The notes: a model not told the origin generated them from the letters alone. A DNA stretch of 64,000 bases from Rhizobium sp. (GCA_039593415.1 JBCNPI010000006.1:246-64245), one strand, 5' to 3'; shown: positions 1-18,066, numbered from the stretch's first letter. A program made the numbers and translations.

Positions 1-626
1 ACCGAACCGGTAGCTGGACAGGAATAGGAGAAAGCTCTCGACGATCTTTCGTGCCCGACGGTCCGGGACGAAAATTGTCATTGGACTCGTGCCGCTAGGC
101 GGCCGAGTAACGGGCGTTCCAAAGTTGCGTTACGCCAAAGCGGCGCGGGTGCTTTTCATTGCTGGCAGACCTCTGGTGGATCTGGTCTGGTTCTCCACCT
201 TAATCGCTACTCTCCGATTCTCGACTGATGTGGCCGCCGTCAGGGTGGCACTCCTGCCCGCCCTCGCATTTCAACTTTTTATGATCTACTCCAATTTGAT
301 GCCACATTCCGGCAGGCTCTATGGCGAGCGTACGGCGAACGACATGCTGGCTTTGTGGCAAATTATTGGGCGAAGGTGATTATCCAGCAATTCACTGGCA
401 GCTTTATCTCAACGCATTGCGACCCTATGCGGGTATTGAAGAGCCCGTGCTCGGCCGACAGTCGGATCGGATTGCCTATCTCCTACTAGAGCTCAACAGG
501 TTGAGCCAGAACCAGCCAGAGCAACAAACCGCGGCGCTGTTTTGGTGCGCCTGGGTCTGCATGAGGAGGCGCTGGGGATCCTTGCGGAAGCCGATAATAG
601 CAATAGCATGAACCGCTGTTTGAACC

Positions 627-1039
627 ATGCCGAGCTGCGTGTGTCGATGCGCGTCGAGATAGCCAAACTCCATATGGAGCTTGGCAACACGATGATCTAC
701 GTCACCCACGACCAGACCGAGGCGATGACTCTGGCTGACAAGATCGTGGTGTTGCGCGCGGGGCTCATCGAGCAGGTCGGTGCGCCGCTACATCTCTACG
801 ACGATCCCGACAATTTGCTTGTCGCAGGCTTCATCGGGTCGCCGAAGATGAACTTTATTTCCGCTGAAGCAAGCGCACCGCGAGCGGTGCGCTTTCCGGA
901 CGGCATGGAACTGGCTGTTCCAAACTTGTCGACGGACCTGTCCACTGGACAGAAGATCACGGTTGGTATTCGCCCGGAGCACTTGCAGGCGCGAGACGCT
1001 GCCGCGGCCATTCGGCAAAAGCAGTTTCAGCGCGCCTGA
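627..1039 (+). pseudogene. C-terminal fragment of MalK/UgpC-type sugar ABC ATPase
   Basis: [15 protein letters not shown]...[20 protein letters not shown]...[21 protein letters not shown]...GIRPEHL. Walker A, signature and Walker B motifs are absent and the C-terminus is truncated. Confidence 0.85.
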
Positions 1040-1132: not shown

Positions 1133-1879
1133 CTATTCGCGGTGAACGCTCCGGCTGCTCCGCATCGCTTCAGTGAAGTCTGTCTTCGATGCCGCTTTCT
1201 CTCCCCCGAGCTTCGCGCTACCGAGCCGCCGCATGAAGTCAGCGACGAAAAGCGAGGCGTTGGTGGCCCATTTGTGCACCGCAATCGTCTGAGGAATTCG
1301 CGAAAACACTCCATCTATCACCCGGAAGCCTTCCATTCGCTCTGAGGCGTGAAAGAGGAATTCAGTCAATCCAGCTGCCGCGTCGCATTCTCGGTTGGCG
1401 AGAAAGCCGAGGGCCGCCGTAGGGCTGTCGACATGTAGCACCGTCGCCTGCTTGAGTATTCGCTCAAGCTGCTTCGTATAGGCGGCGCTGCGCGCGGAAG
1501 CGATGCGAATTCCGGTGGAATCCAGCTCGTCCGCCGTCCGGTAGGGTGAAGCTACTGGAACCAGGTAGGTGGCCTCGACTGAGATGTAGGCGGGCGAGAA
1601 GCTGAAGCGATCGGTTCTTGACGGGTCTGACGCGATGAAGGCAATGTCCCACTCGCCGCCGTCCGCAGCGGAAAGAATATCCGCCGCCGATCCGTATCGT
1701 ATGAGGGAGAGCTCCAGATTAAGTTCGCGGGCGATCATATTCGCAATGTCCGCGCTCGGTCCCACTAAGGCGCCCGCGTTTTCGTCCCAGCGGATCAATG
1801 CTGCGTTCGACATGTTGAAGGCGGCCCTAATGCCTCCAGCCGGCGCTATTTCCGACCGGACCTGATCCAGAGTGAACAT
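1133..1879 (-). CDS. SBP_bac_3 (family 3 substrate-binding fold) protein without signal peptide
   Basis: APAGGIRAAFN...GPSADIANMIARELN...WDIAFIASDPSRTDRFSFSPAY pattern of the family 3 PBP fold. No hydrophobic N-terminal signal. RBS GGGGAG precedes the ATG. Confidence 0.8.
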   Translation of the reverse strand: MFTLDQVRSEIAPAGGIRAAFNMSNAALIRWDENAGALVGPSADIANMIARELNLELSLIRYGSAADILSAADGGEWDIAFIASDPSRTDRFSFSPAYISVEATYLVPVASPYRTADELDSTGIRIASARSAAYTKQLERILKQATVLHVDSPTAALGFLANRECDAAAGLTEFLFHASERMEGFRVIDGVFSRIPQTIAVHKWATNASLFVADFMRRLGSAKLGGEKAASKTDFTEAMRSSRSVHRE

Positions 1880-1891
1880 GCTACATCTCCC

Positions 1892-2007
1892 CAGAGCGCG
1901 ATGCCGAAAACTGTAGACGGTTTTCGCACGGCATCACGCTCTACTTCTTTGATTCCAGAGCGGATTCAGATTTTTGGTCGAACAGACCTAAAATCATCCA
2001 GCTCTAG
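1892..2007. repeat. RIME-like rhizobial intergenic mosaic element (two palindromic halves)
   Basis: AGAGCGCGATGCCGAAAAC...GTTTTCGCACGGCATCACGCTCT followed by AGAGCGGATTCAGATTTTTGGTCGAACAGACCTAAAATCATCCAGCTCTAG. Matches the recalled rhizobial RIME architecture and ends in CTAG. Confidence 0.8.
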
Positions 2008-2768
2008 CGCGAAAACCTGGACGCAAGTGCTTCCGATCCTCTGGCAAGGAGGGCAACATCGACGCCAACTGCCGTGAACAGCGTTCCCTGTGCAATGCAG
2101 CGGGCCGCAAACGTCTCGTCAGGCGTCAAGATGCCTGACGGCTTACCGACCGCTTTCAAGCGCTCGATCGCATTCTCGATTGCCGAAACTACCTCGGGAT
2201 GTCCCGGTTGGCCGGGATAACCGAGGCTGGCTGCAAGGTCTGCCGGACCGATGAAGATCCCGTCGACTCCGTCGACACCTGCAATGGCTTCAAGCCGATC
2301 GAGCGCCTCTCGTGTCTCGATCTGCAGCAAGAGGCAGATTTCCTGTTCGGCGGTCTGCGCGTAGCTCGGCACGCGCCCGAAACGGGTGGCGCGGGTGAGG
2401 GCGGATACGCCGCGGATACCTCGCGGTGCGTAACGCGCAGCGGCCACGGCCGTCTTCGCCTCCTGTTCATTCTGCACATATGGAATGAGAAGCGTCTGGA
2501 CGCCGATATCCAGAAAACGCTTGATCAATACAGGGTCGTTAAAGGCCGGGCGCACCACGGAGGCGACGTCGTATGGAGCCACCGCCTGCAACTGTGGGAG
2601 CACAGTCAGGACGTCGCTGGGCGAATGCTCGGTATCGAAAAGCAGCCAGTCGAAACCGGAGGGCGCGACGATTTCCGCTGTATAGCTGCCCGGAAGGCCG
2701 CACCACAATCCGATCTGACTTTGACCGGCTCGGAGTTTTCGCTTGAAGCTGTTGACGGGGAGTTCCAT
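2004..2768 (-). CDS. hpaI: HpcH/HpaI family aldolase (4-hydroxy-2-oxoheptanedioate aldolase-like)
   Basis: [51 protein letters not shown] motifs. Confidence 0.9.
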
Positions 2769-2775
2769 GAGATCC

Positions 2776-3558
2776 TCACACGAATGAGACGCCGATTGAG
2801 CCGACGGGGCCGTAGTCGGCCTGGATCACGTCGCCCCGGGCGATGTCCACAGGACGGGTGAAAGAGCCGGCCAGCACGATCTGCCCCTTTTTCAAACCGC
2901 CGCCCACTGCGTGGAGCTTGTTTACCAACCAGGCGATTCCTGCTGCCGGATGGCCCATGATCGCGGCCGAAACGCCCGACTCCTCGATAATACCGTTCTT
3001 CGAAAGGGTGGCGCCTACCCAGCGGATGTCGATGTCCATTGGGCGAAAGATGCGCCCGCCAACAACGATCGCCCCGAAAGCGGCGTTGTCAGCGATCGTG
3101 TCGGTGATCGCCCTCGGAACTTCGGTGCGATAGTCGATGATCTCGAGAGCCGGAACGACGAATTCGGTCGCCCTCATCACGTCGTAGATCCGCGTACTTG
3201 GTCCCTCGAGATCCTCGCCCATCACAAAAGCGAGCTCGACTTCGAGCCGGGGCTTTATAAAGAGTTCCGCCTTGATTTGCGCCCCGTCGTTGTAGAGGGC
3301 GTCGTCGAGAATGACACCATAGTCGGGCTCGGTCATCTTGGATGCCATCTGCATTGCGCGCGATGTCAGGCCGATCTTGTGGCCTACGATCCGAGCACCC
3401 CCGGCAGTTCGAGCCTCCGCCCAGAGCGCTTGAATTTTATAGGCATCTTCAAGCTCCAGACCGGGGTAGGTCTTGCTCGGTTGAACGATTGGCTTGCGGT
3501 CGGTTTCTGCCTTCAGAAGGGCGTTGGCCGCCTCACGGCGTTCCTGTTCTGTGATCAT
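2776..3558 (-). CDS. hpaH: 2-oxo-hept-4-ene-1,7-dioate hydratase-like (FAH superfamily hydratase/decarboxylase)
   Basis: [55 protein letters not shown]. Confidence 0.88.
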
Positions 3559-3578
3559 CGGTTCGGCTCTGTCGTTGG

Positions 3579-4472
3579 TTATTTGATTGGCGGACGCGGC
3601 AGCACAGCTTCGCCAGGCTCCATGACGTAGGTGTAGTCGAGTGAGAACCAGGGGCCGTCGGCTTCAGCCTCGGACGGATGCGGTTCGTGATGGAGGACGA
3701 AGTCGCCGGTCAGCGCTGCCGTCACTCCAAACTGAACGTCGGAAGCGATGTGCGGATCGCTTGGATCGAAGACCTGGGAAATCAGCGTCTTGCATCCCTG
3801 CTTGAAGATCAGGGCGTGAAGATGCGCTGGTCGGTACGGATGACGCCCCTGCGCCTTCAGCAGTCGCCCGACGACGCCATCGACCGGGATCGGGTATCCG
3901 ACCATCTTCACAGTCCTGAACCAAAAGCGGCCGTCGGCGTCCGTGGTGAACTTGCCCCGAAGGTTCATCTCAGCCTGATCGGGATCCTGATTTTCATAGA
4001 GCCCGACAGGAGAAGCATGCCAGACGTCGACTTCGGCACCCTCTATCGGCCTGCCGTCGCGGTCTATCACCCTGGCGCGGACATAGAGCGGCGTGCCTGG
4101 CGTGTCGGAGCGGACGATCGTGCCACCGTTTTCGACACGGGGAGAGTTCAGGCGCCAGAACGGGCCGAGAAGAGACTGTGATGTCTCCGTCTGGCCGCCG
4201 TTGCCGTTGTTCAAAAGGCAAACCAGCGAGGATACGCCGAGAGATCCGGCCATGAGAACAAATTCGTTGTGGCTGTCCGTCTGCAGTTGTCCGATCTCGT
4301 TGAGTACCGCTGTCGCTTCGCGGAACTCGACTTCGGACAATCTCACCTCCCGCACGAATGCATGGAGATGCTTCACCATTGCTACCAGGATTTCCCGCAG
4401 ACGTGGATCCTCGGTTTTTTTCATCACCGCAAGTACGGCAGGCGTCAACTCGCTCTCAGTCTTTATGGCCAT
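3579..4472 (-). CDS. Intradiol ring-cleavage dioxygenase (catechol/hydroxyquinol 1,2-dioxygenase family)
   Basis: N-terminal dimerisation helix DPRLREILVAMVKHLHAFVREV, LLGPF, VDVWHA. Fe ligands at GLYENQ, VGYPIP and RPAHLH. ATG at 4472 follows a GAGAGG RBS. Confidence 0.92.
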   Translation of the reverse strand: MAIKTESELTPAVLAVMKKTEDPRLREILVAMVKHLHAFVREVRLSEVEFREATAVLNEIGQLQTDSHNEFVLMAGSLGVSSLVCLLNNGNGGQTETSQSLLGPFWRLNSPRVENGGTIVRSDTPGTPLYVRARVIDRDGRPIEGAEVDVWHASPVGLYENQDPDQAEMNLRGKFTTDADGRFWFRTVKMVGYPIPVDGVVGRLLKAQGRHPYRPAHLHALIFKQGCKTLISQVFDPSDPHIASDVQFGVTAALTGDFVLHHEPHPSEAEADGPWFSLDYTYVMEPGEAVLPRPPIK

Positions 4473-4505
4473 AAGGGTACCTCTCACTGAGGCTAACTAT
4501 TAAAA

Positions 4506-4524
4506 ATAATCGATTATCTGTCAA
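4506..4524 (-). promoter_or_regulatory. Leftward promoter: TTGACA followed by the palindrome ATAATCGATTAT (putative GntR operator)
   Basis: Perfect 12-bp palindrome at 4506-4517. Minus-strand TTGACA at 4524-4519. Confidence 0.6.
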
Positions 4525-4659
4525 TGAATGTTGCGATTACTTTTTCCACTTGAGAAGGGAAAATCGGGTGTGAATGCCATTAACACACTGAAGAAATTAA
4601 ATTAAACGCACGAGCCAATCGGGTTTTGACTATAAAATGGGTTGGTCTTCGCTTTCTCG

Positions 4660-4680
4660 TTGACATAAATAATCGTTTAT
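4660..4680 (+). promoter_or_regulatory. Rightward promoter: TTGACA followed by ATAATCGTTTAT (second operator copy)
   Basis: TTGACA at 4660-4665, then an 11/12 match to the palindrome at 4669-4680. Further ATCGA half-sites lie downstream. Confidence 0.55.
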
Positions 4681-4724
4681 CATATCGATCATCGACAGTT
4701 GATCGAAATTGCCAGGGACTAGGG

Positions 4725-5462
4725 ATGAACTCGGCCGACGATAGCGCCTCTGCGCCAATGACAGATGAGGAGACGGCGTCCGCGGGTTTTTCGGATGATG
4801 GCAAGAACACAATGGGAAGCCAGTTGGCGTCGCGTCTCCGCGAGGCGATTATCTCTGGCGAGCTGGAGGCCGGCAGCAAGATCAATCTCGACAAGGCGCG
4901 CCGCACGTTCAACGTTAGCTTGAGCCCTCTGAGAGAGGGACTTGCACGCCTGATCTCCGACGGCCTGGTGGAGTTTCAGGACAACCGCGGCTATCGCGTA
5001 GCTCCGATCTCGCTGGCGAATCTCGAAGAAATCACGACGTTGCGCGAGGAGCTCGAAGTCTTCGCACTGCGGGAATCCATGCGTATCGGCGATGTCGAGT
5101 GGGAGGGCAATATAATGCGCTCGCTCCATCGCCTGAACCGCACAGAGCGAGATGCCTCGCGCCCTGAGACGCTCGAGCAATGGGAGGCACTTCACCGGGA
5201 ATTCCATCTCACGCTCATTTCCGGTTGCGGCAAACCGCTTCTGTTGCATTTCTGCGGCCTCTTGCTGAACCTGAATGACCGGTACCGCCGGGTCTTCCTC
5301 ATCAGGACTTCGGGCGACCGGAATGTCGGGCAGGAGCATAGCGAGATTGCGCAAGGAGCCGTCGCGCGGGATATCGAATACGCCTGCGAGAAACTGCGAC
5401 AGCACATCCACCGCACGGGGACGAACCTTCGGAATCATCTTGCGACGAAAGGGATCGTCTGA
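4725..5462 (+). CDS. GntR family transcriptional regulator (FCD domain)
   Basis: wHTH LREAIISGELEAGSKINL...VSLSPLREGLARL...GLVE..NRGYRV. FCD motifs HREFHLTL and QEHSEI. Confidence 0.92.
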   Translation: MNSADDSASAPMTDEETASAGFSDDGKNTMGSQLASRLREAIISGELEAGSKINLDKARRTFNVSLSPLREGLARLISDGLVEFQDNRGYRVAPISLANLEEITTLREELEVFALRESMRIGDVEWEGNIMRSLHRLNRTERDASRPETLEQWEALHREFHLTLISGCGKPLLLHFCGLLLNLNDRYRRVFLIRTSGDRNVGQEHSEIAQGAVARDIEYACEKLRQHIHRTGTNLRNHLATKGIV

Positions 5463-6283
5463 TGGTGGTGCCTGGATCGAGATCAGAGCAACAGATTGGC
5501 GTTGCGCACTTCTCCGCCATCTCCCTCGCGCCGAGCGATTTTGCGAAGGCCGCAGCGGGGGCGGGGTTTTCCAGGATTGGGCTGAGACTGAATCCGGCTT
5601 TTCCAGGAGCGCCGTGCTACGAGTTGCCGGTAGGCGGCCACGCAGCGGAAGAATTGAAAGCCGTATTGCGCGGCGAAGCGTTAGAGGTGTTCGATATCGA
5701 GTTCTTTGTCATCGACCCGTCGTTCAGCGTCTCGTCTCTGGAGCCCATAATGGCTGCGGCTGCCAATATCGGGGCGAAACGTCTAAGCGTTTGCGGCGAT
5801 GATCCGGAACAGAGTAGGCTGCAGTCGAACTTCACTGAATTCTGCGGCCTTGCAAGCGGCTACGGATTGGCAGTCGATATCGAGAACATGGGTTGGCGGA
5901 CGGTCAGAACCTTCGCTGACAGCGTCAATCTCCTGAAATCGAGCGGTGTGCCCAATGCCGGCGCACTCGTCGACGGAGTTCATTTCTTTAGGAACGGCGG
6001 AACCCTGGCGTCGCTCAGCGCCGTGATCGATAGGGTCAGGCATGTCCAGTTGTGCGATGTCGCCGGACCTGCTCCGAGCACGGCCGAGGCCATGATCGCG
6101 GAGGCCCGAGGCATGCGTCTTGCCCCCGGCGAGGGCGAATTGCCCCTGTGCGAACTGGTCGCAATAGCCGACGGGGCCGCAGCGATCTCGGTCGAAGTAC
6201 CCCTGTCAGGCTCGGCAGATGCGGAGGAACATTTGAAACGCCTATTCGAAGGGGCCTTACGCATATTTAAGCCGGATCAGTGA
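5462..6283 (+). CDS. Sugar-phosphate isomerase/epimerase, xylose-isomerase-like TIM barrel (AP_endonuc_2)
   Basis: DIENMGW, LVDGVHF, HVQLCD, RLAPGEGEL and ISVEVP metal-site motifs. Coupled to gntR by a TGATG overlap. Confidence 0.82.
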   Translation: MVVPGSRSEQQIGVAHFSAISLAPSDFAKAAAGAGFSRIGLRLNPAFPGAPCYELPVGGHAAEELKAVLRGEALEVFDIEFFVIDPSFSVSSLEPIMAAAANIGAKRLSVCGDDPEQSRLQSNFTEFCGLASGYGLAVDIENMGWRTVRTFADSVNLLKSSGVPNAGALVDGVHFFRNGGTLASLSAVIDRVRHVQLCDVAGPAPSTAEAMIAEARGMRLAPGEGELPLCELVAIADGAAAISVEVPLSGSADAEEHLKRLFEGALRIFKPDQ

Positions 6284-6332
6284 TTGCGGCGCCGGCGAGG
6301 CGAGAGCCGCGCCGAAGGGAGGAAGCCAAAAG

Positions 6333-7001
6333 ATGGGTTACAGGTTTGATTTTGGCGCGGTCTTCGACCGCGCTCCGGAATTGTTTTGGGGTTCGCTCGG
6401 AACGTTGGGTCTCGCCTTCGCCGGGATGCTGCTCGCTCTCATAATCGGAATTCTAGGTGTCGCAGCAAGAACCTCGAAGACTGCGTGGGTCCGCGCTCCG
6501 GTGATCGCTTTCGTCGAGGTCGTCCGCAACACGCCGTTCCTGGTGCAGATCTTCTTTATCTACTTTGCCCTTCCGCTTACGGGCATCCGCCTGAACCCGA
6601 CGGTCACCGCAATTATCGCACTGGGGATAAACGGAGGCGCCTACGCCATCGAGATCATCCGCGGCGGCGTGGAGAGCATCAACAAGGGGCAGATCGAAGC
6701 TGGTTTTGCTCTCGGGCTGCACAAGGCCGACGTCTTCCGGCTCATCGTTCTGAAGCCTGCACTAAGAGCGATCTACCCGTCTTTGACAAGCCAGTTCGTG
6801 ATGCTGACCTTGACCACCTCGGTGTGCACCTCGATCGCCGCATATGAGCTGACATCTGCGGCGCAGCGCATCGAGTCGGACACGTTCCGAAGCTTCGAAG
6901 TCTACTTCACCGTGACCGCGATCTACCTGATCATCTCAAGTTTGATGATGGGAATCTTTGCTTTGATCTCCCGTTCCTACTTCAACTATCCGACCCGATA
7001 G
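6333..7001 (+). CDS. Polar amino acid ABC transporter permease
   Basis: RNTPFLVQIFFIYF, AYAIEIIRGG, EAA loop GQIEAGFALGL. Confidence 0.93.
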   Translation: MGYRFDFGAVFDRAPELFWGSLGTLGLAFAGMLLALIIGILGVAARTSKTAWVRAPVIAFVEVVRNTPFLVQIFFIYFALPLTGIRLNPTVTAIIALGINGGAYAIEIIRGGVESINKGQIEAGFALGLHKADVFRLIVLKPALRAIYPSLTSQFVMLTLTTSVCTSIAAYELTSAAQRIESDTFRSFEVYFTVTAIYLIISSLMMGIFALISRSYFNYPTR

Positions 7002-7010
7002 GAGGCGCTC

Positions 7011-7661
7011 ATGGGGCCCATCGGCGAAAACGAGCTGTTCTTCATCCTGCAGGGTCTGAAATGGACCGTATTGCTGGCGATTATCGGTTTCATTGGCGGA
7101 GGCGTGTTCGGCATTTTGATCGCGCTTGTGCGCACGTCGAAGCATCAGTTCGCAAGGCTTGCCTCATCTGGCTATATCGCGCTCTTTCAAGGCACGCCGC
7201 TCCTGATGCAGCTCTTTGTCGTCTATTACGGCGTTGCTCTGCTTGGCATCGATGTCAACGCCTGGGTCGCTGTCGCGATCGCGTTCACTCTCCACGCAAG
7301 CGCCTTCCTCGGCGAGATATGGCGCGGCTCGATTGAAGCCGTTCCCAAAGGGCAGATCGAAGCGGCGAACGCTCTTGGCCTGCATTACGTCTCTCGAATG
7401 AAGGACGTGGTTCTGCCACAGGCTTTGAAGATCTCGATGCCTGCGACCATCGGCTTTCTTGTGCAACTCATCAAGGGGACGTCGCTTGCGGCGATCGTGG
7501 GCTTCATCGAACTGACCCGGGCTGGCCAGATCATATCAAACCAGACCTACCGCCCGCTGCTCGTCTTCGGGATCGTCGGAATAATCTACTTCGTGATTTG
7601 CTGGCCCCTTTCCCACGTCGGAAGCGGCCTTGAGAAACGGATGGCAAAAGCCGCCCGGTAA
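7011..7661 (+). CDS. Polar amino acid ABC transporter permease
   Basis: QGTPLLMQLF, GEIWRGSIEAVPKGQIEAANALGL, IKGTSL. Confidence 0.93.
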   Translation: MGPIGENELFFILQGLKWTVLLAIIGFIGGGVFGILIALVRTSKHQFARLASSGYIALFQGTPLLMQLFVVYYGVALLGIDVNAWVAVAIAFTLHASAFLGEIWRGSIEAVPKGQIEAANALGLHYVSRMKDVVLPQALKISMPATIGFLVQLIKGTSLAAIVGFIELTRAGQIISNQTYRPLLVFGIVGIIYFVICWPLSHVGSGLEKRMAKAAR

Positions 7662-7705
7662 GCCTGCTTCGGGAGAAGTAAACAACACAAGAGGAGGAAA
7701 GTGCA

Positions 7706-8530
7706 ATGAATACCAATCGCAGGAAATTTCTCGGTCTGGCTCTGGCGACCGCTACCGTCGTCGCCGTTGGCGCTACCGCAGCCGCCGCGGCATCTGTCGA
7801 GGAGATAAAGTCGAAGGGAACGCTCGTCGTCGGCATCCAAGGCGACAACGCGCCCTGGGGCTTTGTCAACTCGAGCGGCAAACAGGACGGATTCGACGCC
7901 GATGTGGCCACGCTGTTCGCCAAGGAACTCGGCGTGAAAGTCCAGTTCCAACCGCTTGCTGTCGCGAACCGTATCCCCGCGCTGACGACCGGCAAGGTCG
8001 ATATTCTCTTCGCCACGATGGCGATGACGGAAGAGCGCGCCAAGTCGATCCAGTACAGCAAACCTTATGCGGCCAACACGATTTCGCTTTATGCCGCCAA
8101 GGCTGACACCGTGAAATCGCCGGCCGACCTTGCTGGCTGGGAAATAGGTGTGCCGAAGTCGAGCTCGCAGGACAAGGCCGTAACCGACGCGGTCGGATCA
8201 AAGGCCACCATTCGCCGCTTCGATGATGACGCAGCTACTATCCAGGCCCTGATCTCCGGACAGGTGAGGGCAGTGGGCGGCAATCAGTTCTACGGGCAGA
8301 GGCTCGATGCAGCCAGCTCCGGCAAGTATGAACGAAAGATCGACTTCCTGACGACTTACAACGGTGTTGGAACGCGATTGGGTGAGAAGGACTGGAACGA
8401 GACCGTTAACGCCTTCCTCGACAAGATCAAGGGCAACGGCGAACTCGCAGCCATCACCAAGAAGTGGATGGCCATCGATCTTCCCAAGTTCCCCGAATCC
8501 ATCCCCAACATTCCGTTTACGGTCAAGTAA
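7706..8530 (+). CDS. ABC substrate-binding protein family 3 with Tat-like signal
   Basis: NRRKFL twin-arginine signal, then GTLVVG, DGFDADVA, RIPALTTGKVD, TEERAK..YSKPY. Confidence 0.92.
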   Translation: MNTNRRKFLGLALATATVVAVGATAAAAASVEEIKSKGTLVVGIQGDNAPWGFVNSSGKQDGFDADVATLFAKELGVKVQFQPLAVANRIPALTTGKVDILFATMAMTEERAKSIQYSKPYAANTISLYAAKADTVKSPADLAGWEIGVPKSSSQDKAVTDAVGSKATIRRFDDDAATIQALISGQVRAVGGNQFYGQRLDAASSGKYERKIDFLTTYNGVGTRLGEKDWNETVNAFLDKIKGNGELAAITKKWMAIDLPKFPESIPNIPFTVK

Positions 8531-8537
8531 AGCATAA

Positions 8538-9311
8538 ATGGAGGGCGCCGTGCTCAATTCCCCCAACGATCGGTCGACCTTGATATCCCTTGATAAAGTG
8601 GAGAAATGGTACGGCTCCTTCCATGCCCTGAAGAACATCAATCTGTCGGTTCGCAAGGGAGAGAAGATCGTTCTTTGCGGACCGTCCGGTTCCGGTAAGT
8701 CCACCCTGATCCGCTGCATCAACGCTTTGGAATTGATTCAGGGCGGTAAGATCGTGGTGGAAGGCCAACAGTTGGACGGCACAACCAAGGCGGTCGACGC
8801 CATTCGACGCGAAGTCGGAATGGTTTTCCAGAACTTCAATCTGTTCCCTCACATGACCGTCCTGCAAAACTGTGCGCTTGCACCCATGAGAGTGCGGGGC
8901 GCAAGCCGTGCCGATGCCGAGAAGTTGGCACGAAAATATCTCGAGCGCGTTCGCATCCTCGATCAAGCGGAAAAGTATCCGGCACAACTCAGCGGTGGAC
9001 AGCAGCAGCGCGTCGCCATCGCGCGCGCCCTGTGCATGGAGCCGAAAGCGATGCTTTTCGATGAGCCCACCTCCGCCTTGGATCCCGAAATGGTGAAAGA
9101 GGTTCTCGACACCATGATCGGCCTGGCAAGAGACGGCATGACGATGATCTGCGTCACCCATGAAATGGGCTTTGCCCGCCAAGTCGCTGACCGGGTCATC
9201 TTCATGGCTTCCGGAGAGATCATCGAGGAGGCGCAGCCTGACACCTTCTTCAAGAACCCCAAGCATGAACGGACGAAGGCATTTCTCGGCGAAATCCTTG
9301 CGCATCACTGA
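8538..9311 (+). CDS. Polar amino acid ABC transporter ATP-binding protein
   Basis: [43 protein letters not shown]. Confidence 0.96.
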
Positions 9312-9323
9312 TCGGGCAGAGAC

Positions 9324-10184
9324 ATGGACAACAACAAATTCCTGGTCGGCCTGATCGGGGCCGATATTCAGATGTCAAAGTCGCCGGCGCTTCATGAAAC
9401 GGAAGGGCGCCACCTGGGGCTTGATTACGAGTACGAGCTCGTGGACCTGGCAGAGCGCGGATTGCCTCCTTCCGCGCTGCCAGATCTTCTGGACGAGTTG
9501 GAAAGCCGCGGCTTTGCGGGAGCCAACATCACCCACCCATGCAAACAGACCGTGCTGCCTCACCTCACACGCCTGTCCGAAGATGCTAAGATGCTTGGAG
9601 CCGTAAACACCGTCGTGCTCCAGAACGGCGAGCGTATCGGACACAACACCGACTGGTATGGCTTCTACAAAAATTTTGAGCGCGGCTTGCCTGACGTCGC
9701 GAAGGCTCATGCTATTCTGCTTGGCGCCGGTGGCGCCGGGGTGGCCGTCGCGCACGCTGCCGTGAAACTCGGCATAGAAAAGCTCTCGATCTTCGATCAG
9801 GACAAGCGCCGCGCCTCCACGCTTGCCGATCAGCTCAACGAGAGATTTTCAGGAGAGGTCGCAGGGCCGGTCAGAGACGTCGGTGCCGCGCTCGCCAGCG
9901 CAGATGGACTGATCCATGCCACGCCGACTGGTATGCGAAGCCATCCGGGGCTTCCGATAGATCCCGAATGGATAGAGCATCGTCACTGGGTGGCGGATAT
10001 CGTCTATATGCCGTTGGTGACCGAGCTCCTTGCATTGGCAAAGCAGAAGGGGTGCCGGACGCTCCCAGGCGGGGGAATGACCGTGTTTCAGGCGGCCGCG
10101 GCCTTCGAGCTGTTTACAGGCCTATCGCCCGACACGGAACGAATGTCGCGCCATTTCGACGAGCTGTGCCGAGTGGCAGCCTGA
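9324..10184 (+). CDS. aroE: Shikimate/quinate dehydrogenase family (AroE/YdiB/RifI-like)
   Basis: SKSPALH, GANITHPCKQ, GAVNT, GHNTDW, LGAGGAG, DIVYMP. Confidence 0.9.
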   Translation: MDNNKFLVGLIGADIQMSKSPALHETEGRHLGLDYEYELVDLAERGLPPSALPDLLDELESRGFAGANITHPCKQTVLPHLTRLSEDAKMLGAVNTVVLQNGERIGHNTDWYGFYKNFERGLPDVAKAHAILLGAGGAGVAVAHAAVKLGIEKLSIFDQDKRRASTLADQLNERFSGEVAGPVRDVGAALASADGLIHATPTGMRSHPGLPIDPEWIEHRHWVADIVYMPLVTELLALAKQKGCRTLPGGGMTVFQAAAAFELFTGLSPDTERMSRHFDELCRVAA

Positions 10185-10199
10185 TCGGGGGACTACTCC

Positions 10200-10568
10200 A
10201 TGCCGCATATTATCATCGACTACAGCCGAGGTGCGGCGGAACGGGTCGCCATCGACGAGTTGACCCGAGCGGTTCATCGCCGGGTCCGCGACGGAGGGCT
10301 GGTCAAGCCAACCGTGGTCCGTACGTTCGCCAGAGAAGCCACCGTGTCCTGCGTCGGCGACGAACATCCCGACAACCACTTTGTGCAGATAATTGTACGT
10401 ATGGCCCCAGGCCGTCCTCTGGAAGTCAAACAAGAGCTGCTAAAATCGGTGCTCGAAGCTGCGCGTGACGTCGCAGCTTCCGCACTGGAAGCCGGTCGGC
10501 TCGGGCTTCGCGCAGATATCTACGAATCCGACCCAAACTTCGCGTTTCAGGACATAGCGTTCGCCTGA
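10200..10568 (+). CDS. 5-carboxymethyl-2-hydroxymuconate isomerase-like tautomerase
   Basis: N-terminal catalytic Pro (MPHIIIDYS), PGR motif, about 120 aa. Confidence 0.85.
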
Positions 10569-10597
10569 TCCCGGCAACGCCCACAAGGACAAATGCA

Positions 10598-11047
10598 ATG
10601 AGCCTCATCTACGTTCTCAACGGACCAAACCTAAACCTCCTCGGCAAGCGCCAGCCACATATCTACGGGCATGAGACATTGGCTGACGTCGAGACGGATT
10701 GCCGAAAGTTGGCGTCGGAGCTGGGGCACGAGATCCGTTTCCATCAAAGCAACCGCGAATACGAGATCATCGACTGGATCCACGAGGCGCGCGAGGACGG
10801 CGCCGGCATTGTCATCAACCCGGCCGCGTTTACTCACACTTCGCTCGCTATCCTCGACGCACTGAATACCTTTGAAGGCCCCGTCATCGAAATCCATATC
10901 TCCAATGTCCACAAGCGTGAGAGTTTCCGCCACCATTCTTTTGTGTCCCACCGGGCCGACGGCGTCATCGCCGGTCTCGGCACCGAAGGCTATCAACTCG
11001 GCATCCGCAGAGTTGCGACCATGCTTAAGACCGAGAAGAAGGACTGA
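10598..11047 (+). CDS. aroQ: Type II 3-dehydroquinate dehydratase
   Basis: [48 protein letters not shown]. Confidence 0.97.
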
Positions 11048-11052
11048 TAGCG

Positions 11053-12087
11053 ATGGCGACCCGGGTCAAGCTGGCGGTCCTTGGGGCGGGGCTGATCGGC
11101 ACGCGTCATATTAAGCACGTGATGGAAGAGCCGGCCGCAGAGCTGACGGCAGTTGTGGATCCCACGCCAGTCGGTCAAAGGATCGCGAGTGAGGTTGGTG
11201 TCAGATGGTTCCCCAGCTTTGCCGACATGATGATTTCCGAGCGCCCCGACGGTGTCATCATCGCGACGCCGAACCAGATGCATGTTCAAAATGGGTTGGA
11301 AGCCGTTGAGGCGGGCATACCGGCGCTGATCGAAAAGCCGATCGCAGACGACATCGCTGCCGGCGAGAGGCTTGTGCAAATGGCTGAAGCCAAGGGCGTG
11401 GCGCTGCTGACGGGACATCACCGGCGACATAATCCGATGATGCGGAAAACGAAGGAGATCATCGACAGCGGGACGCTCGGTCGGATCCTGATCGTGAATG
11501 CGATGTTCTGGCTGCTCAAGCCGGACGACTACTTTGACATCCCCTGGCGGCGAGAGCGTGGAGCAGGCCCCGTCTTCCTCAACCTCATTCACGACATCGA
11601 TAACCTCCGTTTCCTTTGCGGCGATATAAGCGCCGTCCAGGCCCGTGAATCCAATGCGGTGCGAAGCAACGCCGTCGAGGAAACTGCGGTCATCCTCATC
11701 GAATTCAAAAATGGTGTTCTCGGTACTGCTTCCGTGTCCGATTCCGTTGTCGCGCCGTGGAGTTGGGAGATGACGACGGGAGAAAATCCCGCTTACCCGA
11801 AAACTGACGAGATTTGCTACATGATCGGTGGCACTCACGGATCTCTGGCCGTGCCGTCGCTGGAAATATGGAGCAATGCTGAAAAGAGGAGTTGGACGGA
11901 GGCATTTGAGCGCAACAGAGCCGCTTTCGAAAACGCAGACCCGCTTGTCATGCAGATCCGCCAGTTCTGCAGCGTCATTCGGGGTGAGGGAGGTCCTTTG
12001 GTCAGCGGTCGGGAAGGCTTGGAGACATTGAAGGTCATTGAAGCCGTCAAGCGGTCGGCCGCGACAGGAGATCGCGTCGTCCTCTAG
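11053..12087 (+). CDS. Gfo/Idh/MocA family oxidoreductase
   Basis: GAGLIG, IIATPNQMH, IEKP, GHHRRHNP, NLIHDID. Confidence 0.93.
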   Translation: MATRVKLAVLGAGLIGTRHIKHVMEEPAAELTAVVDPTPVGQRIASEVGVRWFPSFADMMISERPDGVIIATPNQMHVQNGLEAVEAGIPALIEKPIADDIAAGERLVQMAEAKGVALLTGHHRRHNPMMRKTKEIIDSGTLGRILIVNAMFWLLKPDDYFDIPWRRERGAGPVFLNLIHDIDNLRFLCGDISAVQARESNAVRSNAVEETAVILIEFKNGVLGTASVSDSVVAPWSWEMTTGENPAYPKTDEICYMIGGTHGSLAVPSLEIWSNAEKRSWTEAFERNRAAFENADPLVMQIRQFCSVIRGEGGPLVSGREGLETLKVIEAVKRSAATGDRVVL

Positions 12088-12096
12088 CCAGGAGGC

Positions 12097-12471
12097 TCAT
12101 CGGCCGGAAATATGTAGTGACACTCCCGTTTTTTCGGCCGCTGCTCGCAGTCGCTTGTCTCTGGTCCACAAGGTTGCTTTCTGCTCAAGGAGAACGGATG
12201 CCAGCAGATGGGCATCAGTGTAGCCAATACCCATGCTGAAAATGCCGTATCGATCGATCATCGTCATGACTTCGTCGTGCGTGGCGACAACAGCTCCGCG
12301 CTGAGCTGCCAAAAAAGCAATGACATTGCCGCGATCCCGAAGGCTGCCAAGAGCCAATTCCCCAATCACGCTCGGATGGCAAAGTAGTCGATCGTCTTCG
12401 ATTATTCTTCGTAGCTCACCATTGCCGTATCGGAAATGATCGATCCAGATCGAGGTGTCTACCAATATCAC
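12097..12471 (-). CDS. vapC: VapC PIN-domain toxin
   Basis: ILVDTSIWIDH, VIGELALG, GIGYTDAHLL, LWTRDKRL. Confidence 0.93.
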   Translation of the reverse strand: MILVDTSIWIDHFRYGNGELRRIIEDDRLLCHPSVIGELALGSLRDRGNVIAFLAAQRGAVVATHDEVMTMIDRYGIFSMGIGYTDAHLLASVLLEQKATLWTRDKRLRAAAEKTGVSLHISGR

Positions 12472-13054: not shown

Positions 13055-13516
13055 CCGGTGCCGGGCACAAAGCTCTTCGGCGTGCTGATTCTTCTTACCT
13101 ATTTCCTGCCCAACGTCGTTGCTGGCCATATGTGGGCCCTCCTGCTGGATCCGCGGCTCGGCGTCATCAACGACCTGCTTGTGCGCATTGGAATTCTGAG
13201 CACCTACAAGGCGTGGTTCGCTGACCCCGTCACGGCTCTGGCCGCGACCATTCTGGTCGAAGCGTGGCATGGCTTTCCCTTTTTCGCGCTGCTGTTTCTC
13301 GCCGGACTGAAGGGCATCCCCGACGATCTGTACAAGGCAGCCGCCGTCGACGGCGCGGGGCCGGTTCGACAATTCCGTCTTATCACGGTACCGATGCTGC
13401 GTACAGTAATCACGGCCGCCGTCATCCTGCGATCAGCCTGGTCAACTCGCCAGATCTGCTCCTCGTTCTGACCGGCGGCGGGCCAGGCAACGCAACACAG
13501 GTCTTGTCGCTCTACA
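13055..13516 (+). pseudogene. Internal fragment of sugar ABC permease, frameshifted
   Basis: LLDPRLGVIN...FPFFALLFLAGLKGIPDDLYKAAAVDGA...ITVPML, then a frame change to LTGGGPGNATQVLSLY. Both ends are missing. Confidence 0.85.
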
Positions 13517-13686: not shown

Positions 13687-14613
13687 ATGCTCTCCTCCGA
13701 CGATCTCGAATTTTTTTGCGCCATAGCGCGGGCTAGGTCGCTCGCCGAGGCGGCGCGGACGTTGAATGTCACCGCGCCGGCGGTCACGCAGCGGCTCAAG
13801 GCGTTGGAGCAGAAGCTTGGCGCCCGTCTGCTGGACAGGTCCCTCAATGGCATGACATTGACCGACGAAGGCCGGCTGATGTTCGATCAAGGGCAGTTGA
13901 TCATCGATGCGGTGGAAGCCCTGACGGACCGGCTGCTCGACCGCACCAATACGGTGCGCGGTCATTTGCGCATCGTCGCATCCTACGGTTTTGGGCGGCA
14001 CTACATCGCGCCGATTGTCGATCAGTTTGCTCGCCGTTACGGCGAAGCGACAGTCACACTTCACCTTTCCGACGCTCCGGCTCGCTTGCTCAGCGAAAAT
14101 TGGGACATCGTCATCCATATCGGCGAACTGAATATGCAGGGACGGATCATGACCCGGCTTGCGCCGAACCGGCGGTTTCTCGTCGCATCGCCGGGGTATC
14201 TCCGGGGCGCACCGTCGATCGATACGCCGCGAGATATCGCTGACCATCGCTGCCTGGCGCTGCGCGAGAATGATGAGGACGTGACGCTGTGGCGTTTTTC
14301 CCACCAGCAGGAGGGTAATGCGACGATCAGGGTCGAAGCCGCGATGTCGACCAATGACGGCGAGGTGCTGAAGGAATGGGCTCTGGCGGGGCAGGGGCTG
14401 GCGGTGCGTTCCCAATGGGACCTTGCCGCACATCTTGCCGACGGTTCTTTGGTCCGCGTCCTGCCAGGCTGGGATCTGCCGTCAACCGATATTGTCGCCT
14501 TCCTCAATACCCGTCACAACCGTTCGCGACGCGTCAGCGAAATGTTAGAAATGCTGCGTAAAGGATTGCGCGCCGCGCCCTGGATGCATGGCGAGCCTGA
14601 GCACACATCCTGA
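13687..14613 (+). CDS. LysR family transcriptional regulator
   Basis: SLAEAARTLNVTAPAVTQRLKALEQKLGARLLDR HTH, followed by a CrgA-like effector domain. Confidence 0.95.
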   Translation: MLSSDDLEFFCAIARARSLAEAARTLNVTAPAVTQRLKALEQKLGARLLDRSLNGMTLTDEGRLMFDQGQLIIDAVEALTDRLLDRTNTVRGHLRIVASYGFGRHYIAPIVDQFARRYGEATVTLHLSDAPARLLSENWDIVIHIGELNMQGRIMTRLAPNRRFLVASPGYLRGAPSIDTPRDIADHRCLALRENDEDVTLWRFSHQQEGNATIRVEAAMSTNDGEVLKEWALAGQGLAVRSQWDLAAHLADGSLVRVLPGWDLPSTDIVAFLNTRHNRSRRVSEMLEMLRKGLRAAPWMHGEPEHTS

Positions 14614-14654
14614 GAGCAGAAGCGGCACGCTTGCCTACCTCTGCCGAACTGCCG

Positions 14655-16091
14655 TCAGGGCGCACCGTATCCGAGCACGGCTTTAACCTCGAGGTATTCC
14701 TCCATTCCGAAGATGCCGTACTCCCGGCCGTTACCGGATTGCTTGTAGCCGCCGAAAGGCGCGTTGCCGTCGGCCTCCGGATAGTTGATGTGGACCTGAC
14801 CGGCGCGAATGCGCCGCGCGGCGGCACGGGCGCGATCCAGCGAGGCCGATTGTACCTGGGAACCAAGGCCGTAGATGGTGTCGTTGGCAATCTCGATGGC
14901 CTGTTCCTCGTTCTCGTAGGCAAGAATGCACAGAACCGGCCCGAAGATTTCTTCCTGTGAGATCGCCATGCTGCTCTTGACGTCGGTGAACACCGTCGGA
15001 CGAACGTAGAGGCCCGTATTGAGATGGGTCGGCCTGCCCGGCCCGCCGCACAGAAGCTGCGCACCTTCAGCAAGGCCCTTTTCGATCATCTGCTGCACGC
15101 GCTCAAACTGGGCGCGATTGGCGACGGGTCCGAGATCCGTCTTCGGGTCGGCGGGATCGCCGACAACGAGCTTCTCGACGGAACGGCGCACGAGCGCTTC
15201 CACGTCCGCGAGACGGGAGCGGGGAACGATCATCCGTGTGGGAGCGCTGCAGGACTGGCCGACATTACGGAAGCCCGACAGGACGCCAGCCGGCACCGCC
15301 TTTTCGAAATCGGCGTCTTCCAGCATCACGTTTGGCGATTTGCCGCCGAGTTCCTGGGTCACGCGCTTGATAGTGGGGGCGGCGGCCCTTGCAACTGCCG
15401 CGCCGGCACGGGTGGAGCCGGTTATCGAGACCATGTCCACGTCCCTGTGGCTTGCGATTGCTTCGCCGACCTTTTCGCCTGTGCCGAACACCATGTTGAA
15501 GACGCCTGCCGGGACGCCCGCTTCGTGCATAACTTCGGCAACGATGTTGGCACTGTATGGCGAAAGTTCGCTGGGCTTCAGCACGATGGTGCAGCCTGCG
15601 GCAAGCGCCGCGCCGGCCTTGGCTGTGATCTGGTAAAGTGGCCAGTTCCATGGTGTGATTAGGCCGCAAACACCGATCGGCTCGCGCACGACCGCAGTAC
15701 TGCCGCGCTGGCTTACAAAAACGTAGCTCTCGACGATCTCCGCGGCGCTGCGGATGTGGAAGATCCCGGCTGGAACCTGGCGCTGGCTGGCAAATGTGAT
15801 GGCGCAGCCCATCTCCATGCTGATGACGCGGGCGATTTCATCGCGACGCTTTTCCAGAAGATCGGCGGCACGTGCCAGTATGGTGCTGCGGAAGGCCGCC
15901 GTGCTTGTCGAAAAGGACGGAAAGGCAGCGCGAGCCGCCGCGACCGCCTTGTCGACATCGGTCGTGTCTCCGGCGGCAATGCTCCCGATGCGTTCTTCGG
16001 TTGCGGGATTGATGACATCGATCCGGCCGCTGGATGTCGGTGCGCACCATGCCCCGTTGATGTAGAGCTTATCGAGATTAAGATCGGTCAT
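14655..16091 (-). CDS. Aldehyde dehydrogenase family protein
   Basis: ITPWNWP, LKPSE, ITGSTRAG, QELGGKSP, GQSCSAP (catalytic Cys), EEIFGPV, PFGGYKQSG. Confidence 0.96.
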   Translation of the reverse strand: MTDLNLDKLYINGAWCAPTSSGRIDVINPATEERIGSIAAGDTTDVDKAVAAARAAFPSFSTSTAAFRSTILARAADLLEKRRDEIARVISMEMGCAITFASQRQVPAGIFHIRSAAEIVESYVFVSQRGSTAVVREPIGVCGLITPWNWPLYQITAKAGAALAAGCTIVLKPSELSPYSANIVAEVMHEAGVPAGVFNMVFGTGEKVGEAIASHRDVDMVSITGSTRAGAAVARAAAPTIKRVTQELGGKSPNVMLEDADFEKAVPAGVLSGFRNVGQSCSAPTRMIVPRSRLADVEALVRRSVEKLVVGDPADPKTDLGPVANRAQFERVQQMIEKGLAEGAQLLCGGPGRPTHLNTGLYVRPTVFTDVKSSMAISQEEIFGPVLCILAYENEEQAIEIANDTIYGLGSQVQSASLDRARAAARRIRAGQVHINYPEADGNAPFGGYKQSGNGREYGIFGMEEYLEVKAVLGYGAP

Positions 16092-16266
16092 GGGGTCTCG
16101 TTAGGCTTGTCGGACGACACCGATGCAGCGCGCCTCTTCACTCGCCATGCAAACTCCGAGCATGGCAATCTGCTCACTATGACGTCGTAGCGATATCGCA
16201 TCAATTAAGTTCGGCTACAGCTGCTGTTTAGGCCAACCTTATTGGTCCGGTCTCGCCCTATCGTCG

Positions 16267-16282
16267 TTAAGTTGGAACTTAA
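16267..16282. promoter_or_regulatory. Palindrome TTAAGTT-GG-AACTTAA in the divergent aldh/DSD1 spacer
   Basis: 7-bp perfect arms. Related TTAAG/CTTA half-sites occur nearby in an AT-rich spacer. Plausible LysR-type site. Confidence 0.45.
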
Positions 16283-16364
16283 TCCTTTCTGACCGAAACC
16301 TTAATTGAGTGAATGCGCCGGACACCTGATGATTTGGGAAAATTGAACAAGAGGACCACAGACG

Positions 16365-17546: not shown

Positions 17547-17551
17547 GGAGG

Positions 17552-17941
17552 ATGCAGATGACCGGTGTCGTCGAAATCAGCACGGACAAAGCGCCGAAGC
17601 CGGCCGGCCATTATGCTCAGGCAACACGATGCCGGGGTATCCTGTCGATTTCGGGTCAGCTCCCGATCCTCCCGAACGGCACACGGTGCGACAGTGAGGG
17701 GTTCGAAGCGCAGGCCCGCCAGGCGATCGCCAACATGCTTGCCATCCTGGAGGCCGCCGGCGGGCGCCCGGAACAACTGATGAAGGTGACCGCCTACATC
17801 CGCGGCGTCGAGAACTGGCCGGTCTTCAACCAGATCTACGCCGATATGCTCGGCAAGGCGCGACCAGCCCGGGCTATCGTTCCCGTTCCCGAATTGCATT
17901 ATGGCCTTCTGGTGGAGATCGAAGCGACAGCCGCACTTTGA
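17552..17941 (+). CDS. RidA/YjgF family imine deaminase
   Basis: APKPAGHYAQA, ISGQLP, RPARAIV, LVEIEA. Confidence 0.93.
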   Translation: MQMTGVVEISTDKAPKPAGHYAQATRCRGILSISGQLPILPNGTRCDSEGFEAQARQAIANMLAILEAAGGRPEQLMKVTAYIRGVENWPVFNQIYADMLGKARPARAIVPVPELHYGLLVEIEATAAL

Positions 17942-18066
17942 AGACAAGCGCGGCGAGGGCGATATAACCTCGCGTTAAGGATGGTTGAGCATTTGACGTT
18001 TGTATAAGCAGACGGCGGGAAGCAAAATCGCCGAGGACAATAAGCCGAAGGCATCAGGCATTCGAA

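Follow-up and report, generated by a model that had tools for sequence, protein, structure and literature searches.

The gene cluster at positions 1133..12087 of a 64,000-nt stretch of Rhizobium sp. DNA (GCA_039593415.1 JBCNPI010000006.1:246-64245; this whole stretch is called the window) combines an ortho ring-cleaving dioxygenase with the hydratase and the aldolase of a meta pathway, and it is likely that root and soil bacteria use this combination for burning plant quinate or shikimate via a three-hydroxyl ring. The preferred version of this reading, in which quinate or shikimate is converted via gallate and pyrogallol into pyruvate and malonate semialdehyde, is given a probability of about 0.4; its reactions are inferred from what is directly observed, namely the genes, their families, their linkage, the conservation of an operator and the other gene contexts. 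The existence of a widespread ortho/meta hybrid module, absent from the literature searched, is well supported, and its feeding by a quinate-to-gallate conversion is plausible but unproven.

In the proposed pathway the ATP-binding cassette (ABC) system would import quinate or shikimate, and AroE and AroQ would generate 3-dehydroshikimate (from quinate via dehydroquinate), which would undergo one further oxidation by a Gfo/Idh/MocA dehydrogenase (Gfo), followed by metal-assisted aromatisation of the product to gallate by a QuiC-like TIM barrel protein (TIM). The oxidation of dehydroshikimate to gallate is known chemistry. Gallate is then probably decarboxylated to pyrogallol, with TIM or a cytoplasmic solute-binding-fold protein (SBP1) as candidates, and the intradiol dioxygenase would open pyrogallol directly to 2-hydroxymuconate, so that a semialdehyde dehydrogenase would not be needed. 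Tautomerisation by the CHMI-like protein and hydration by HpaH would give 4-hydroxy-2-oxoadipate, which HpaI would split into pyruvate and malonate semialdehyde, the latter being taken onward by a CoA-acylating dehydrogenase encoded elsewhere in the genome. The lower route would correspond to the end of the homoprotocatechuate pathway, one carbon shorter, and a GntR regulator would bind ATAATCGATTAT at both promoters. A bolder and quite tentative extension is that the cluster is a second dedicated quinate/shikimate pathway, in which dehydroshikimate is over-oxidised to gallate, gallate is decarboxylated by TIM or SBP1 and pyrogallol is burnt by the ortho/meta hybrid, the same module being the missing syringate/gallate route of Agrobacterium plasmids.

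The predicted chemistry of the lower route is based on three genes of the minus strand. The catechol/hydroxyquinol-type intradiol dioxygenase (3579..4472; PF00775 + PF04444) has its probable start at the ATG at 4472, giving 297 residues, which is also the length of database homologues. The structures that it matches best in the PDB, 1tmx and 3n9t (E about 1e-54), are hydroxyquinol 1,2-dioxygenases, and the intradiol Fe(III) ligands Tyr, Tyr and His-x-His are preserved, as shown by the segments GLYENQ, GYPIP and RPAHLH, which align with 1tmx. The pocket differs from that of 1tmx by D83G, V107L, F108L and V251Q; we take Asp83 and Val251 of 1tmx to be functional pocket residues, a role for which the literature search found no paper. 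The enzyme is predicted to cleave pyrogallol or gallate. The HpaH-type hydratase (2776..3558; TIGR02312 354.3 bits, cut-off 351.5) retains the EPDYG hydratase motif of 2eb4 and has, relative to this structure, a 7-residue loop deletion that is present in 167 of 167 distinct module copies, making the loop shorter than in HpaH enzymes with C7 substrates. It is also without the second lysine of the 4-oxalocrotonate decarboxylase NahK, a residue that presumably matters in the latter enzyme, and it is predicted to hydrate 2-hydroxymuconate (or oxalomesaconate). The HpaI-type class II pyruvate aldolase (2004..2768; TIGR02311 391.6 bits, cut-off 368.8; best structural match PDB 4b5s, E 3e-92) is predicted to cleave a 4-hydroxy-2-oxo diacid. 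The HpaH and HpaI families act on 2-hydroxydienoates and 4-hydroxy-2-oxo acids, and intradiol cleavage would provide substrates of these types solely from a ring with three adjacent hydroxyls.

The nature of the carbon skeleton is suggested by a gene that accompanies the module in relatives. A CoA-acylating (methyl)malonate-semialdehyde dehydrogenase (MMSDH) follows HpaI on the same strand, at a distance of at most about 65 bp, in the loci L116, L130, L158 and L175, and is found nearby in L162, L166 and L169 (the L166 copy scores 692 bits on TIGR01722, cut-off 448.5). These loci form three groups, between which HpaH is about 80% identical; a homologue (63%) is present on contig C207 of the source genome. 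Since malonate semialdehyde would come from 4-hydroxy-2-oxoadipate, the latter from 2-hydroxymuconate and this in turn from pyrogallol, the dehydrogenase after HpaI points to the pyrogallol route. The aldehyde is also part of the original prediction, whose logic of a cyclitol acid converted to a polyhydroxy ring, which is cleaved and split to pyruvate plus an aldehyde, is in this respect backed by the MMSDH genes. A precedent for the ring cleavage is found in a study of yeast, where the catechol-type intradiol dioxygenase Acdo1p converts pyrogallol to 2-hydroxymuconate with a kcat of 10.6 per s and converts neither gallate nor protocatechuate, and where the enzyme acting after 2-hydroxymuconate is described as unidentified (PMC9204233).

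The two arms of the cluster are linked across families, and this arrangement is beyond chance. In a GTDB scan anchored on TIM, from which the best 80 of 92 relatives were kept, close kin being numerous among them, the dioxygenase and HpaH are each present at 77 of the 80 loci and AroQ at 68, in agreement with the co-occurrence on which the original prediction depended; GntR is found at 79, HpaI at 72, the permeases at 63, AroE at 60 (10 of these belonging to a second clade at 28-32% identity), SBP1 at 59, Gfo at 57 (4 of them at just 24-25%) and CHMI at 49. The set extends to Aureimonas, Microvirga, Bosea, Methylobacterium, Methylocapsa and Paracoccus, and in Sagittula P11 both arms lie within a single co-directional run. 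The dioxygenase, HpaH and TIM are all present in Rhizobium tropici CIAT 899 and in Sinorhizobium fredii NGR234. The dioxygenase and HpaH genes are adjacent in 77/80 GTDB loci and in 74/80 loci of a metagenome scan anchored on HpaH, where many loci are short and the dioxygenase is likewise present in 74. The spread is patchy, with dioxygenase matches at E <= 1e-80 in 17 of 251 genomes of the family, and module-type HpaH is found in 0 of 400 other genomes of a class-wide sample. In three rhizosphere libraries, contigs from RNA runs of relatives overlap parts of each arm, an overlap that cannot show transcription or its level. Transporters (ABC, TRAP, MFS) and dehydrogenases are exchanged among lineages. 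The cluster is modular rather than self-contained.

Both arms also share a putative control element. The palindrome ATAATCGATTAT occurs exactly at 4506..4517, upstream of the dioxygenase and beside a minus-strand TTGACA hexamer (4519-4524), and with 1 mismatch at 4669..4680, upstream of gntR and after a plus-strand TTGACA (4660-4665). When searched with at most 1 mismatch within 300 bp upstream, it is found for 139 of the 150 dioxygenases at >=68% identity, for 0 of 22 more distant ones and in 0 of 1500 shuffles, these loci being not de-duplicated and including the window, from which the motif was taken. It is missing in the GntR-less loci inspected (L108, L165, L196, L208, L013 and L015). The same operator is seen in quinate-type, LigM-type and aryl-aldehyde-type contexts, and GntR orthologues at 63-78% identity accompany the lower module in the demethylase clusters too. 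We infer that ATAATCGATTAT is a putative operator governing both arms, with the GntR/FCD protein (4725..5462, plus strand; PF00392 + PF07729; probable start ATG 4725) as the predicted repressor.

The lower module is not confined to the cyclitol context. At five loci the dioxygenase-HpaH-HpaI genes recur, without TIM or AroQ, beside tetrahydrofolate-dependent O-demethylases. On the pAt plasmid of A. tumefaciens 186 the order is dioxygenase, HpaH, HpaI, SBP1, LigM, MetF, PurU, with adjoining hydroxycinnamoyl-CoA genes and with GntR and CHMI genes in divergent orientation, whereas TIM, AroE, AroQ and Gfo are absent; the LigM protein scores 854 bits on NF047885 (cut-off 580). In this LigM cluster the CHMI-like protein is retained alongside the lower module. 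The same run is present on pAt2 of A. fabrum Kin001 (LigM 822.5 bits), together with an extra DesA-leaning demethylase (548 bits, below the cut-off of 800), and the demethylase link is also seen in Bosea vaviloviae, L191 and L208. In a third context the module is accompanied by an aldehyde dehydrogenase that is 55% identical to the one of the hydroxycinnamate cluster, to which L162 adds pcaHG. Among 97 loci with long flanks, 75 have TIM and AroQ, 10 have TIM without AroQ, 3 have a demethylase without TIM and 0 have both TIM and a demethylase. Syringate is converted to gallate by two-step demethylation, as described in PMC11393088, and the LigM/DesA-type neighbours point to gallate as the shared junction of the feeders. 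Gallate is favoured over protocatechuate as the junction because HpaH and HpaI would need a 2-hydroxydienoate, which intradiol cleavage gives solely from three adjacent hydroxyls; it would also explain why the cluster is without a semialdehyde dehydrogenase.

Relatives of the module enzymes are also seen in other arrangements. In L013 (8103-11769) and L015 a module-clade dioxygenase is inserted between pcaF and pcaHG, without HpaH or operator. Sister dioxygenases (55-59%) occur in L019-L022 and L024 with SDR and BKACE genes and mostly also with a Zn-dependent reductase, a cupin and TctC, and these genes form a separate conserved uncharacterised operon. In L133 (9526-9963), L134 (9546-9992), L136 (9483-9923) and L209 (3-410) the place of the dioxygenase, ahead of module-type HpaH-HpaI (70-78%), is taken by a His-rich membrane protein of about 146 residues, a candidate for an as yet unrecognised enzyme of ring cleavage or lactone opening; in L133 HpaH-HpaI are followed by a 4-OT-like tautomerase and pyruvate carboxylase. 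This membrane protein is free-standing at L178:17862-18341, and the Atlas places it in DUF6640 clusters (score 0.96, family on 51% of members). A second type of cluster, with IclR, MaoC, CoA-transferase, an AroE-like dehydrogenase, a related ABC system and an aldo-keto reductase, is found at L010:19268-28891 and L165:284-10783, and in L165 it is joined to dioxygenase-HpaH.

In the upper arm, encoded on the plus strand, the TIM protein (5462..6283; PF01261, AP_endonuc_2; 273 residues, single domain) has an AlphaFold2 (AF2) model with a predicted local distance difference test (pLDDT) score of 92.8. In the fold search this model is closest to Lmo2234 (Z 29.0, root mean square deviation 3.0, 256 residues aligned), QuiC1 (28.9, 2.4, 251) and IolI (28.0, 2.7, 252), with lower scores for IolE (Z 24.8) and AsbF (24.3), so that the original idea of a plain AsbF or IolE substitute is not supported. 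When compared with the ten QuiC1 active-site residues listed in PMC7442255, six are preserved (E141, D171, H174, Q196, R219 and E245 of TIM being E134, D165, H168, Q191, R210 and E239 of QuiC1), L136 and S206 of QuiC1 are replaced by Met and Ala, and R64 and L97 have no match in a poorly aligned region; the N-terminal pocket of TIM differs from that of QuiC1. On the QuiC model (NF042435, cut-off 1200) TIM leaves a trace of 20.6 bits, and the HPPD domain is absent. TIM probably aids aromatisation, as these six residues are kept and it travels with AroQ, and it is predicted to be a metal-dependent aromatising enzyme, sister to QuiC1, IolI and Lmo2234. Distant TIM proteins (40% and 43%) adjoin AroE-like genes, and the Atlas holds solely unnamed AP_endonuc_2 clusters for a TIM homologue. 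In Caballeronia NK8 (L220:3391-8712) a 37% TIM homologue comes after a maleylacetate reductase and a hydroxyquinol-type dioxygenase, which suggests cyclitol-to-hydroxyquinol aromatisation.

Two other roles for TIM were considered. Replacement of QuiC was rejected, since a QuiC-type gene co-occurs in 47 of 50 module genomes (taken from the 80 loci), in some cases next door: in loci of Microvirga, Aureimonas and Propylenella the distance from QuiC to the module is no more than 10 kb, and the Microvirga lupini locus also has pcaHG. A lactonase function in the lower pathway, suggested by the Agrobacterium core, is weakened by the absence of TIM from all five demethylase contexts.

The remaining upper-arm proteins are consistent with a quinate-type substrate. 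The ABC system consists of two polar-amino-acid-family permeases (6333..7661, that is 6333-7001 and 7011-7661; family scans), the periplasmic family-3 binding protein SBP2 (7706..8530; PF00497) and an ATPase (8538..9311; family scans). When aligned to AncQR, SBP2 keeps the carboxylate-binding Arg and has Asn and Ala at the amine-binding Asp and Thr of amino-acid binders, roles that we presume for these positions, and its ligand is therefore likely a carboxylate without an amino group, for instance quinate or shikimate. The lack of amine-binding residues disfavours an amino substrate, and the aminated cyclitol that the original prediction had allowed for is thereby made less attractive. The quinate/shikimate dehydrogenase AroE (9324..10184; PRK12549 subfamily, 437.8 bits, cut-off 235) has an acidic NAD-type motif and, like the type II dehydroquinase AroQ (10598..11047; TIGR01088 188 bits, cut-off 169.85), is clearly above its cut-off, whereas HpaH and HpaI exceed their equivalog cut-offs narrowly. 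The CHMI-like tautomerase (10200..10568; PF02962, N-terminal Pro) is matched at the Pfam level only, with just 28 bits to NF011605. The Gfo/Idh/MocA dehydrogenase (11053..12087; family scans; best PDB matches 3q2k and 3q2i) is predicted to carry out the second ring oxidation; a LigC-like function in a route of the protocatechuate 4,5 type was dropped on chemical grounds, as it would need extradiol chemistry from an intradiol fold.

The decarboxylation step is where SBP1 (1133..1879, minus strand; PF00497) may enter. This family-3 solute-binding-fold protein has no signal peptide (no hydrophobic leader in the 24 N-termini inspected), its R88 is invariant and its AF2 model has a pLDDT of 87.8. 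It goes with the lower module and is the sole gene without an assigned role in the two Agrobacterium LigM runs. The sequence search places the cyclohexadienyl dehydratase (CDT) lineage on top, with ancestral CDT sequences also ranking second and third for SBP2, and in the fold search cyclohexadienyl dehydratases tie with amino-acid binders (Z 20.3-19.4). SBP1 is possibly an enzyme, with decarboxylase and lactonase as candidate activities. A clean complementarity of TIM and SBP1 is not borne out: across 128 flanked loci both are present in 81, TIM only in 28, SBP1 only in 9 and neither in 10. A 76-codon fragment that is 78% identical to SBP1 is seen in the source genome (G000:C46:16330-16557); close by are a further GntR/FCD gene and a cluster with a dioxygenase of the glyoxalase type.

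Several observations weigh against the pyrogallol route from quinate. No gallate decarboxylase is evident in the cluster, which has no known decarboxylase family; UbiD is present in just 16 of the 50 module genomes and in none of the contigs of the 88%-complete source assembly, a count that concerns UbiD and not the fungal-type decarboxylases, which were not searched. The two decarboxylase candidates, TIM and SBP1, are both missing from the 10 flanked loci mentioned above, and SBP1 is found in just 2 of 5 genomes whose cluster is without it. The MMSDH link is limited to 7 loci, the window not among them. In the upper arm, Gfo and AroE are often absent, which does not fit a strict linear route, and with Gfo lacking from many loci the second oxidation would not be universal; the pAt plasmids of Agrobacterium retain just TIM-GntR-dioxygenase-HpaH-HpaI, with TIM but no AroQ, and QuiC in 47/50 genomes gives quinate an ordinary exit. 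LigM also acts on vanillate, with protocatechuate as the product, and this compound could come from any of the feeder contexts seen. Dioxygenase orthologues (72-74%) lie between pcaF and pcaH in the genomes G041 and G173 with no module alongside, yet in a quick tree they are nested in the module clade; across the five genomes G041, G173, G233, G093 and G294, the closest HpaH is 47-52% identical (G233 has none) and TIM is present in one. Finally, four loci, of which three are from Microvirga, have an RraA-family gene after HpaI, and this leans to direct cleavage of gallate.

The latter route is a strong rival, although in itself rather doubtful. It keeps the same upper arm and would cut gallate directly to 4-oxalomesaconate (or to the lactone 2-pyrone-4,6-dicarboxylate, PDC), after which CHMI and HpaH would give 4-carboxy-4-hydroxy-2-oxoadipate (CHA) and HpaI would release pyruvate and oxaloacetate, as a non-homologous copy of GalA/D/B/C or DesB/LigU/J/K. 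PcaGH reportedly forms PDC from gallate. This route requires no decarboxylase, in agreement with the lack of UbiD and with the LigM/DesA contexts, and D83G and V251Q of the dioxygenase could make room for the carboxylate. The short RraA-family genes score about 190 bits on TIGR01935 and 174-180 on the HMG-aldolase model (under its cut-off of 196), and LigK is not over the cut-off in 36 of the 50 module genomes, a count that also speaks for the pyrogallol route; the other 14 already own LigK. However, MMSDH after HpaI in three lineages is left unexplained, HpaH and HpaI are above the equivalog cut-offs of linear-substrate, aldehyde-releasing enzymes, and the yeast enzyme of the dioxygenase family refuses gallate (PMC9204233). 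It is also conceivable, but unlikely, that the arms are co-regulated neighbours, AroE, AroQ and the ABC system feeding QuiC and PcaGH elsewhere, while the lower module salvages gallate or pyrogallol encountered alongside quinate, from galloyl-quinate esters or as by-products of dehydroshikimate oxidation. The QuiC distribution, including its proximity in Microvirga, Aureimonas and Propylenella, the reduced pAt clusters and the window AroQ being the sole AroQ of the assembly agree with this, but the second AroE beside QuiC would leave the window AroE redundant, TIM and Gfo have no part in ordinary quinate catabolism, Sagittula carries all genes in one run, and the cluster has no esterase.

It is improbable that the substrate is another cyclitol acid, extra-hydroxylated or aminated, which TIM would convert QuiC-style to 2,3,4-trihydroxybenzoate, with the fission product losing CO2 spontaneously to give 2-hydroxymuconate. 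The six preserved QuiC1 residues with the differing N-terminal pocket would fit, no decarboxylase would be needed and MMSDH would be accounted for; this proposal clashes with the LigM/DesA feeder contexts and, for an aminated compound, with the residues of SBP2, and we know of no common plant compound of this type, whereas with one more oxidation, to gallate, known compounds account for the data. Least probable is that the dioxygenase acts on protocatechuate or hydroxyquinol, with HpaH and HpaI serving something unrelated: its best PDB matches are hydroxyquinol dioxygenases, orthologues adjoin pcaHG in G041 and G173 and all feeders could give protocatechuate, but the dioxygenase-HpaH adjacency (77/80 and 74/80 loci), the lack of a maleylacetate reductase or cycloisomerase in the cluster and the presence of PcaGH in the genome argue against it.

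The preferred reading, via gallate and pyrogallol, has to be seen against the rest of the source genome. As had been noted, the window has neither PcaGH nor LigAB: contig C513 carries pcaHG, and the sole LigB-family match of the genome is on C373. QuiC is on C384 (689 on NF042435), adjoined by an AroE paralogue that is 55% identical to the window AroE, and a complete hpa meta pathway is on C524, whose HpaH and HpaI share 47% and 49% identity with those of the window. No LigM and no LigK over the cut-off are found in the assembly. The presence of QuiC, PcaGH and a full hpa pathway elsewhere indicates that the cluster comes on top of the ordinary catabolism of quinate, protocatechuate and homoprotocatechuate; together with the occurrence of the lower module without the cyclitol arm in O-demethylase clusters, it contradicts the earlier description of the route as self-contained.

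The cluster comprises 14 open reading frames, all intact, in two divergent, densely packed runs, with intergenic distances inside either arm of -1 to 49 bp, except for 124 bp ahead of the last left-arm gene. Family scans find all the genes of the original prediction where it had placed them, and add SBP1, which it had left unlisted. At the borders are a fragment of a MalK-type ATPase (window 542-1039), a VapC-like PIN gene (12097-12471) and a fragment of an ABC permease (13058-13471), and these flanks suggest a decayed or rearranged neighbourhood. Further on (13687-20744), LysR, aldehyde dehydrogenase, D-serine-dehydratase-like pyridoxal phosphate enzyme, RidA and D-amino-acid-oxidase-like genes probably form a D-amino acid catabolic group. 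On Agrobacterium plasmids the module adjoins anti-phage islands at L009:1-6561 and L132:16565-20780 (TIR/SIR2 genes; CBASS).

Bacterial aerobic gallate and syringate catabolism has so far been described via extradiol enzymes and LigU/J/K, and the module would be a third bacterial route, with all its enzymes drawn from other protein families. Nodulating rhizobia and Agrobacterium plasmids commonly carry it, and present annotations call it catechol dioxygenase plus hpa genes. If the proposal is correct, it provides genes for a bacterial pyrogallol 1,2-dioxygenase and for the steps after 2-hydroxymuconate, whose fate after intradiol pyrogallol cleavage is described as unidentified in PMC9204233. 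The enzymatic conversion of quinate to gallate would also be of importance for making gallate and pyrogallol with microbes and for funnelling the S units of lignin. Cheap substrates and standard strains suffice for testing the predictions. No published description of the cluster was found in the literature searched by title and start of abstract, a search outside which most subscription papers fall, and the accessible part of PMC3333776 and its four text supplements mentions none of its genes.

When compared with known systems, the cluster shares with the hpa/hpc pathway a protein of the CHMI fold as well as HpaH and HpaI, which both exceed the equivalog cut-offs of NCBIfam, but among its 14 proteins scanned the extradiol HpaD, the semialdehyde dehydrogenase HpaE and the decarboxylase HpaG are absent, with an intradiol dioxygenase in their stead, and its HpaH has the 7-residue deletion, the separate complete hpa set being on C524 at 47-49% identity. 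A pyrogallol 1,2-dioxygenase of Azotobacter vinelandii is reportedly known. The Blastobotrys gallate route (Agdc1p, Acdo1p) also uses a catechol-type intradiol dioxygenase for converting pyrogallol to 2-hydroxymuconate; in that account the downstream steps are unidentified (PMC9204233), whereas here hydration and aldol cleavage without 4-oxalocrotonate decarboxylase are predicted. With GalA/GalD/GalB/GalC and DesB/LigU/LigJ/LigK the cluster has in common the feeder seen in relatives (LigM/DesA) and the order of cleavage, tautomerisation, hydration and aldol split, but every enzyme family differs, the dioxygenase being intradiol and not LigB-type, and FAH-fold and HpcH-fold proteins replacing amidohydrolase/PIG-L and RraA; the window cluster has no LigB-type gallate dioxygenase, PrpF tautomerase, LigJ/GalB hydratase or RraA-fold CHA aldolase. 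The quinate/shikimate systems qsuABCD and qui (AroE/QsuD, AroQ/QsuC, QuiC1/QsuB, PcaGH) share AroE and AroQ, and TIM has the fold and metal site of QuiC1, but the cluster adds Gfo, its TIM is without the HPPD domain, and QuiC and PcaGH are encoded elsewhere. The hydroxyquinol enzymes (1tmx, PnpC) share the iron motif, but Asp83 and Val251 are replaced by Gly and Gln in the window dioxygenase, whereas the Caballeronia homologue, which occurs with maleylacetate reductase, retains Asp and Val at these positions; no maleylacetate reductase is found in the window cluster, the related loci not having been searched for one. The original prediction had named a match to a characterised pathway as the observation that would count against it, and the cluster, resembling the hpa end and the gal/lig systems in its working, falls outside the hpa, gal/lig, hydroxyquinol and QuiC families.

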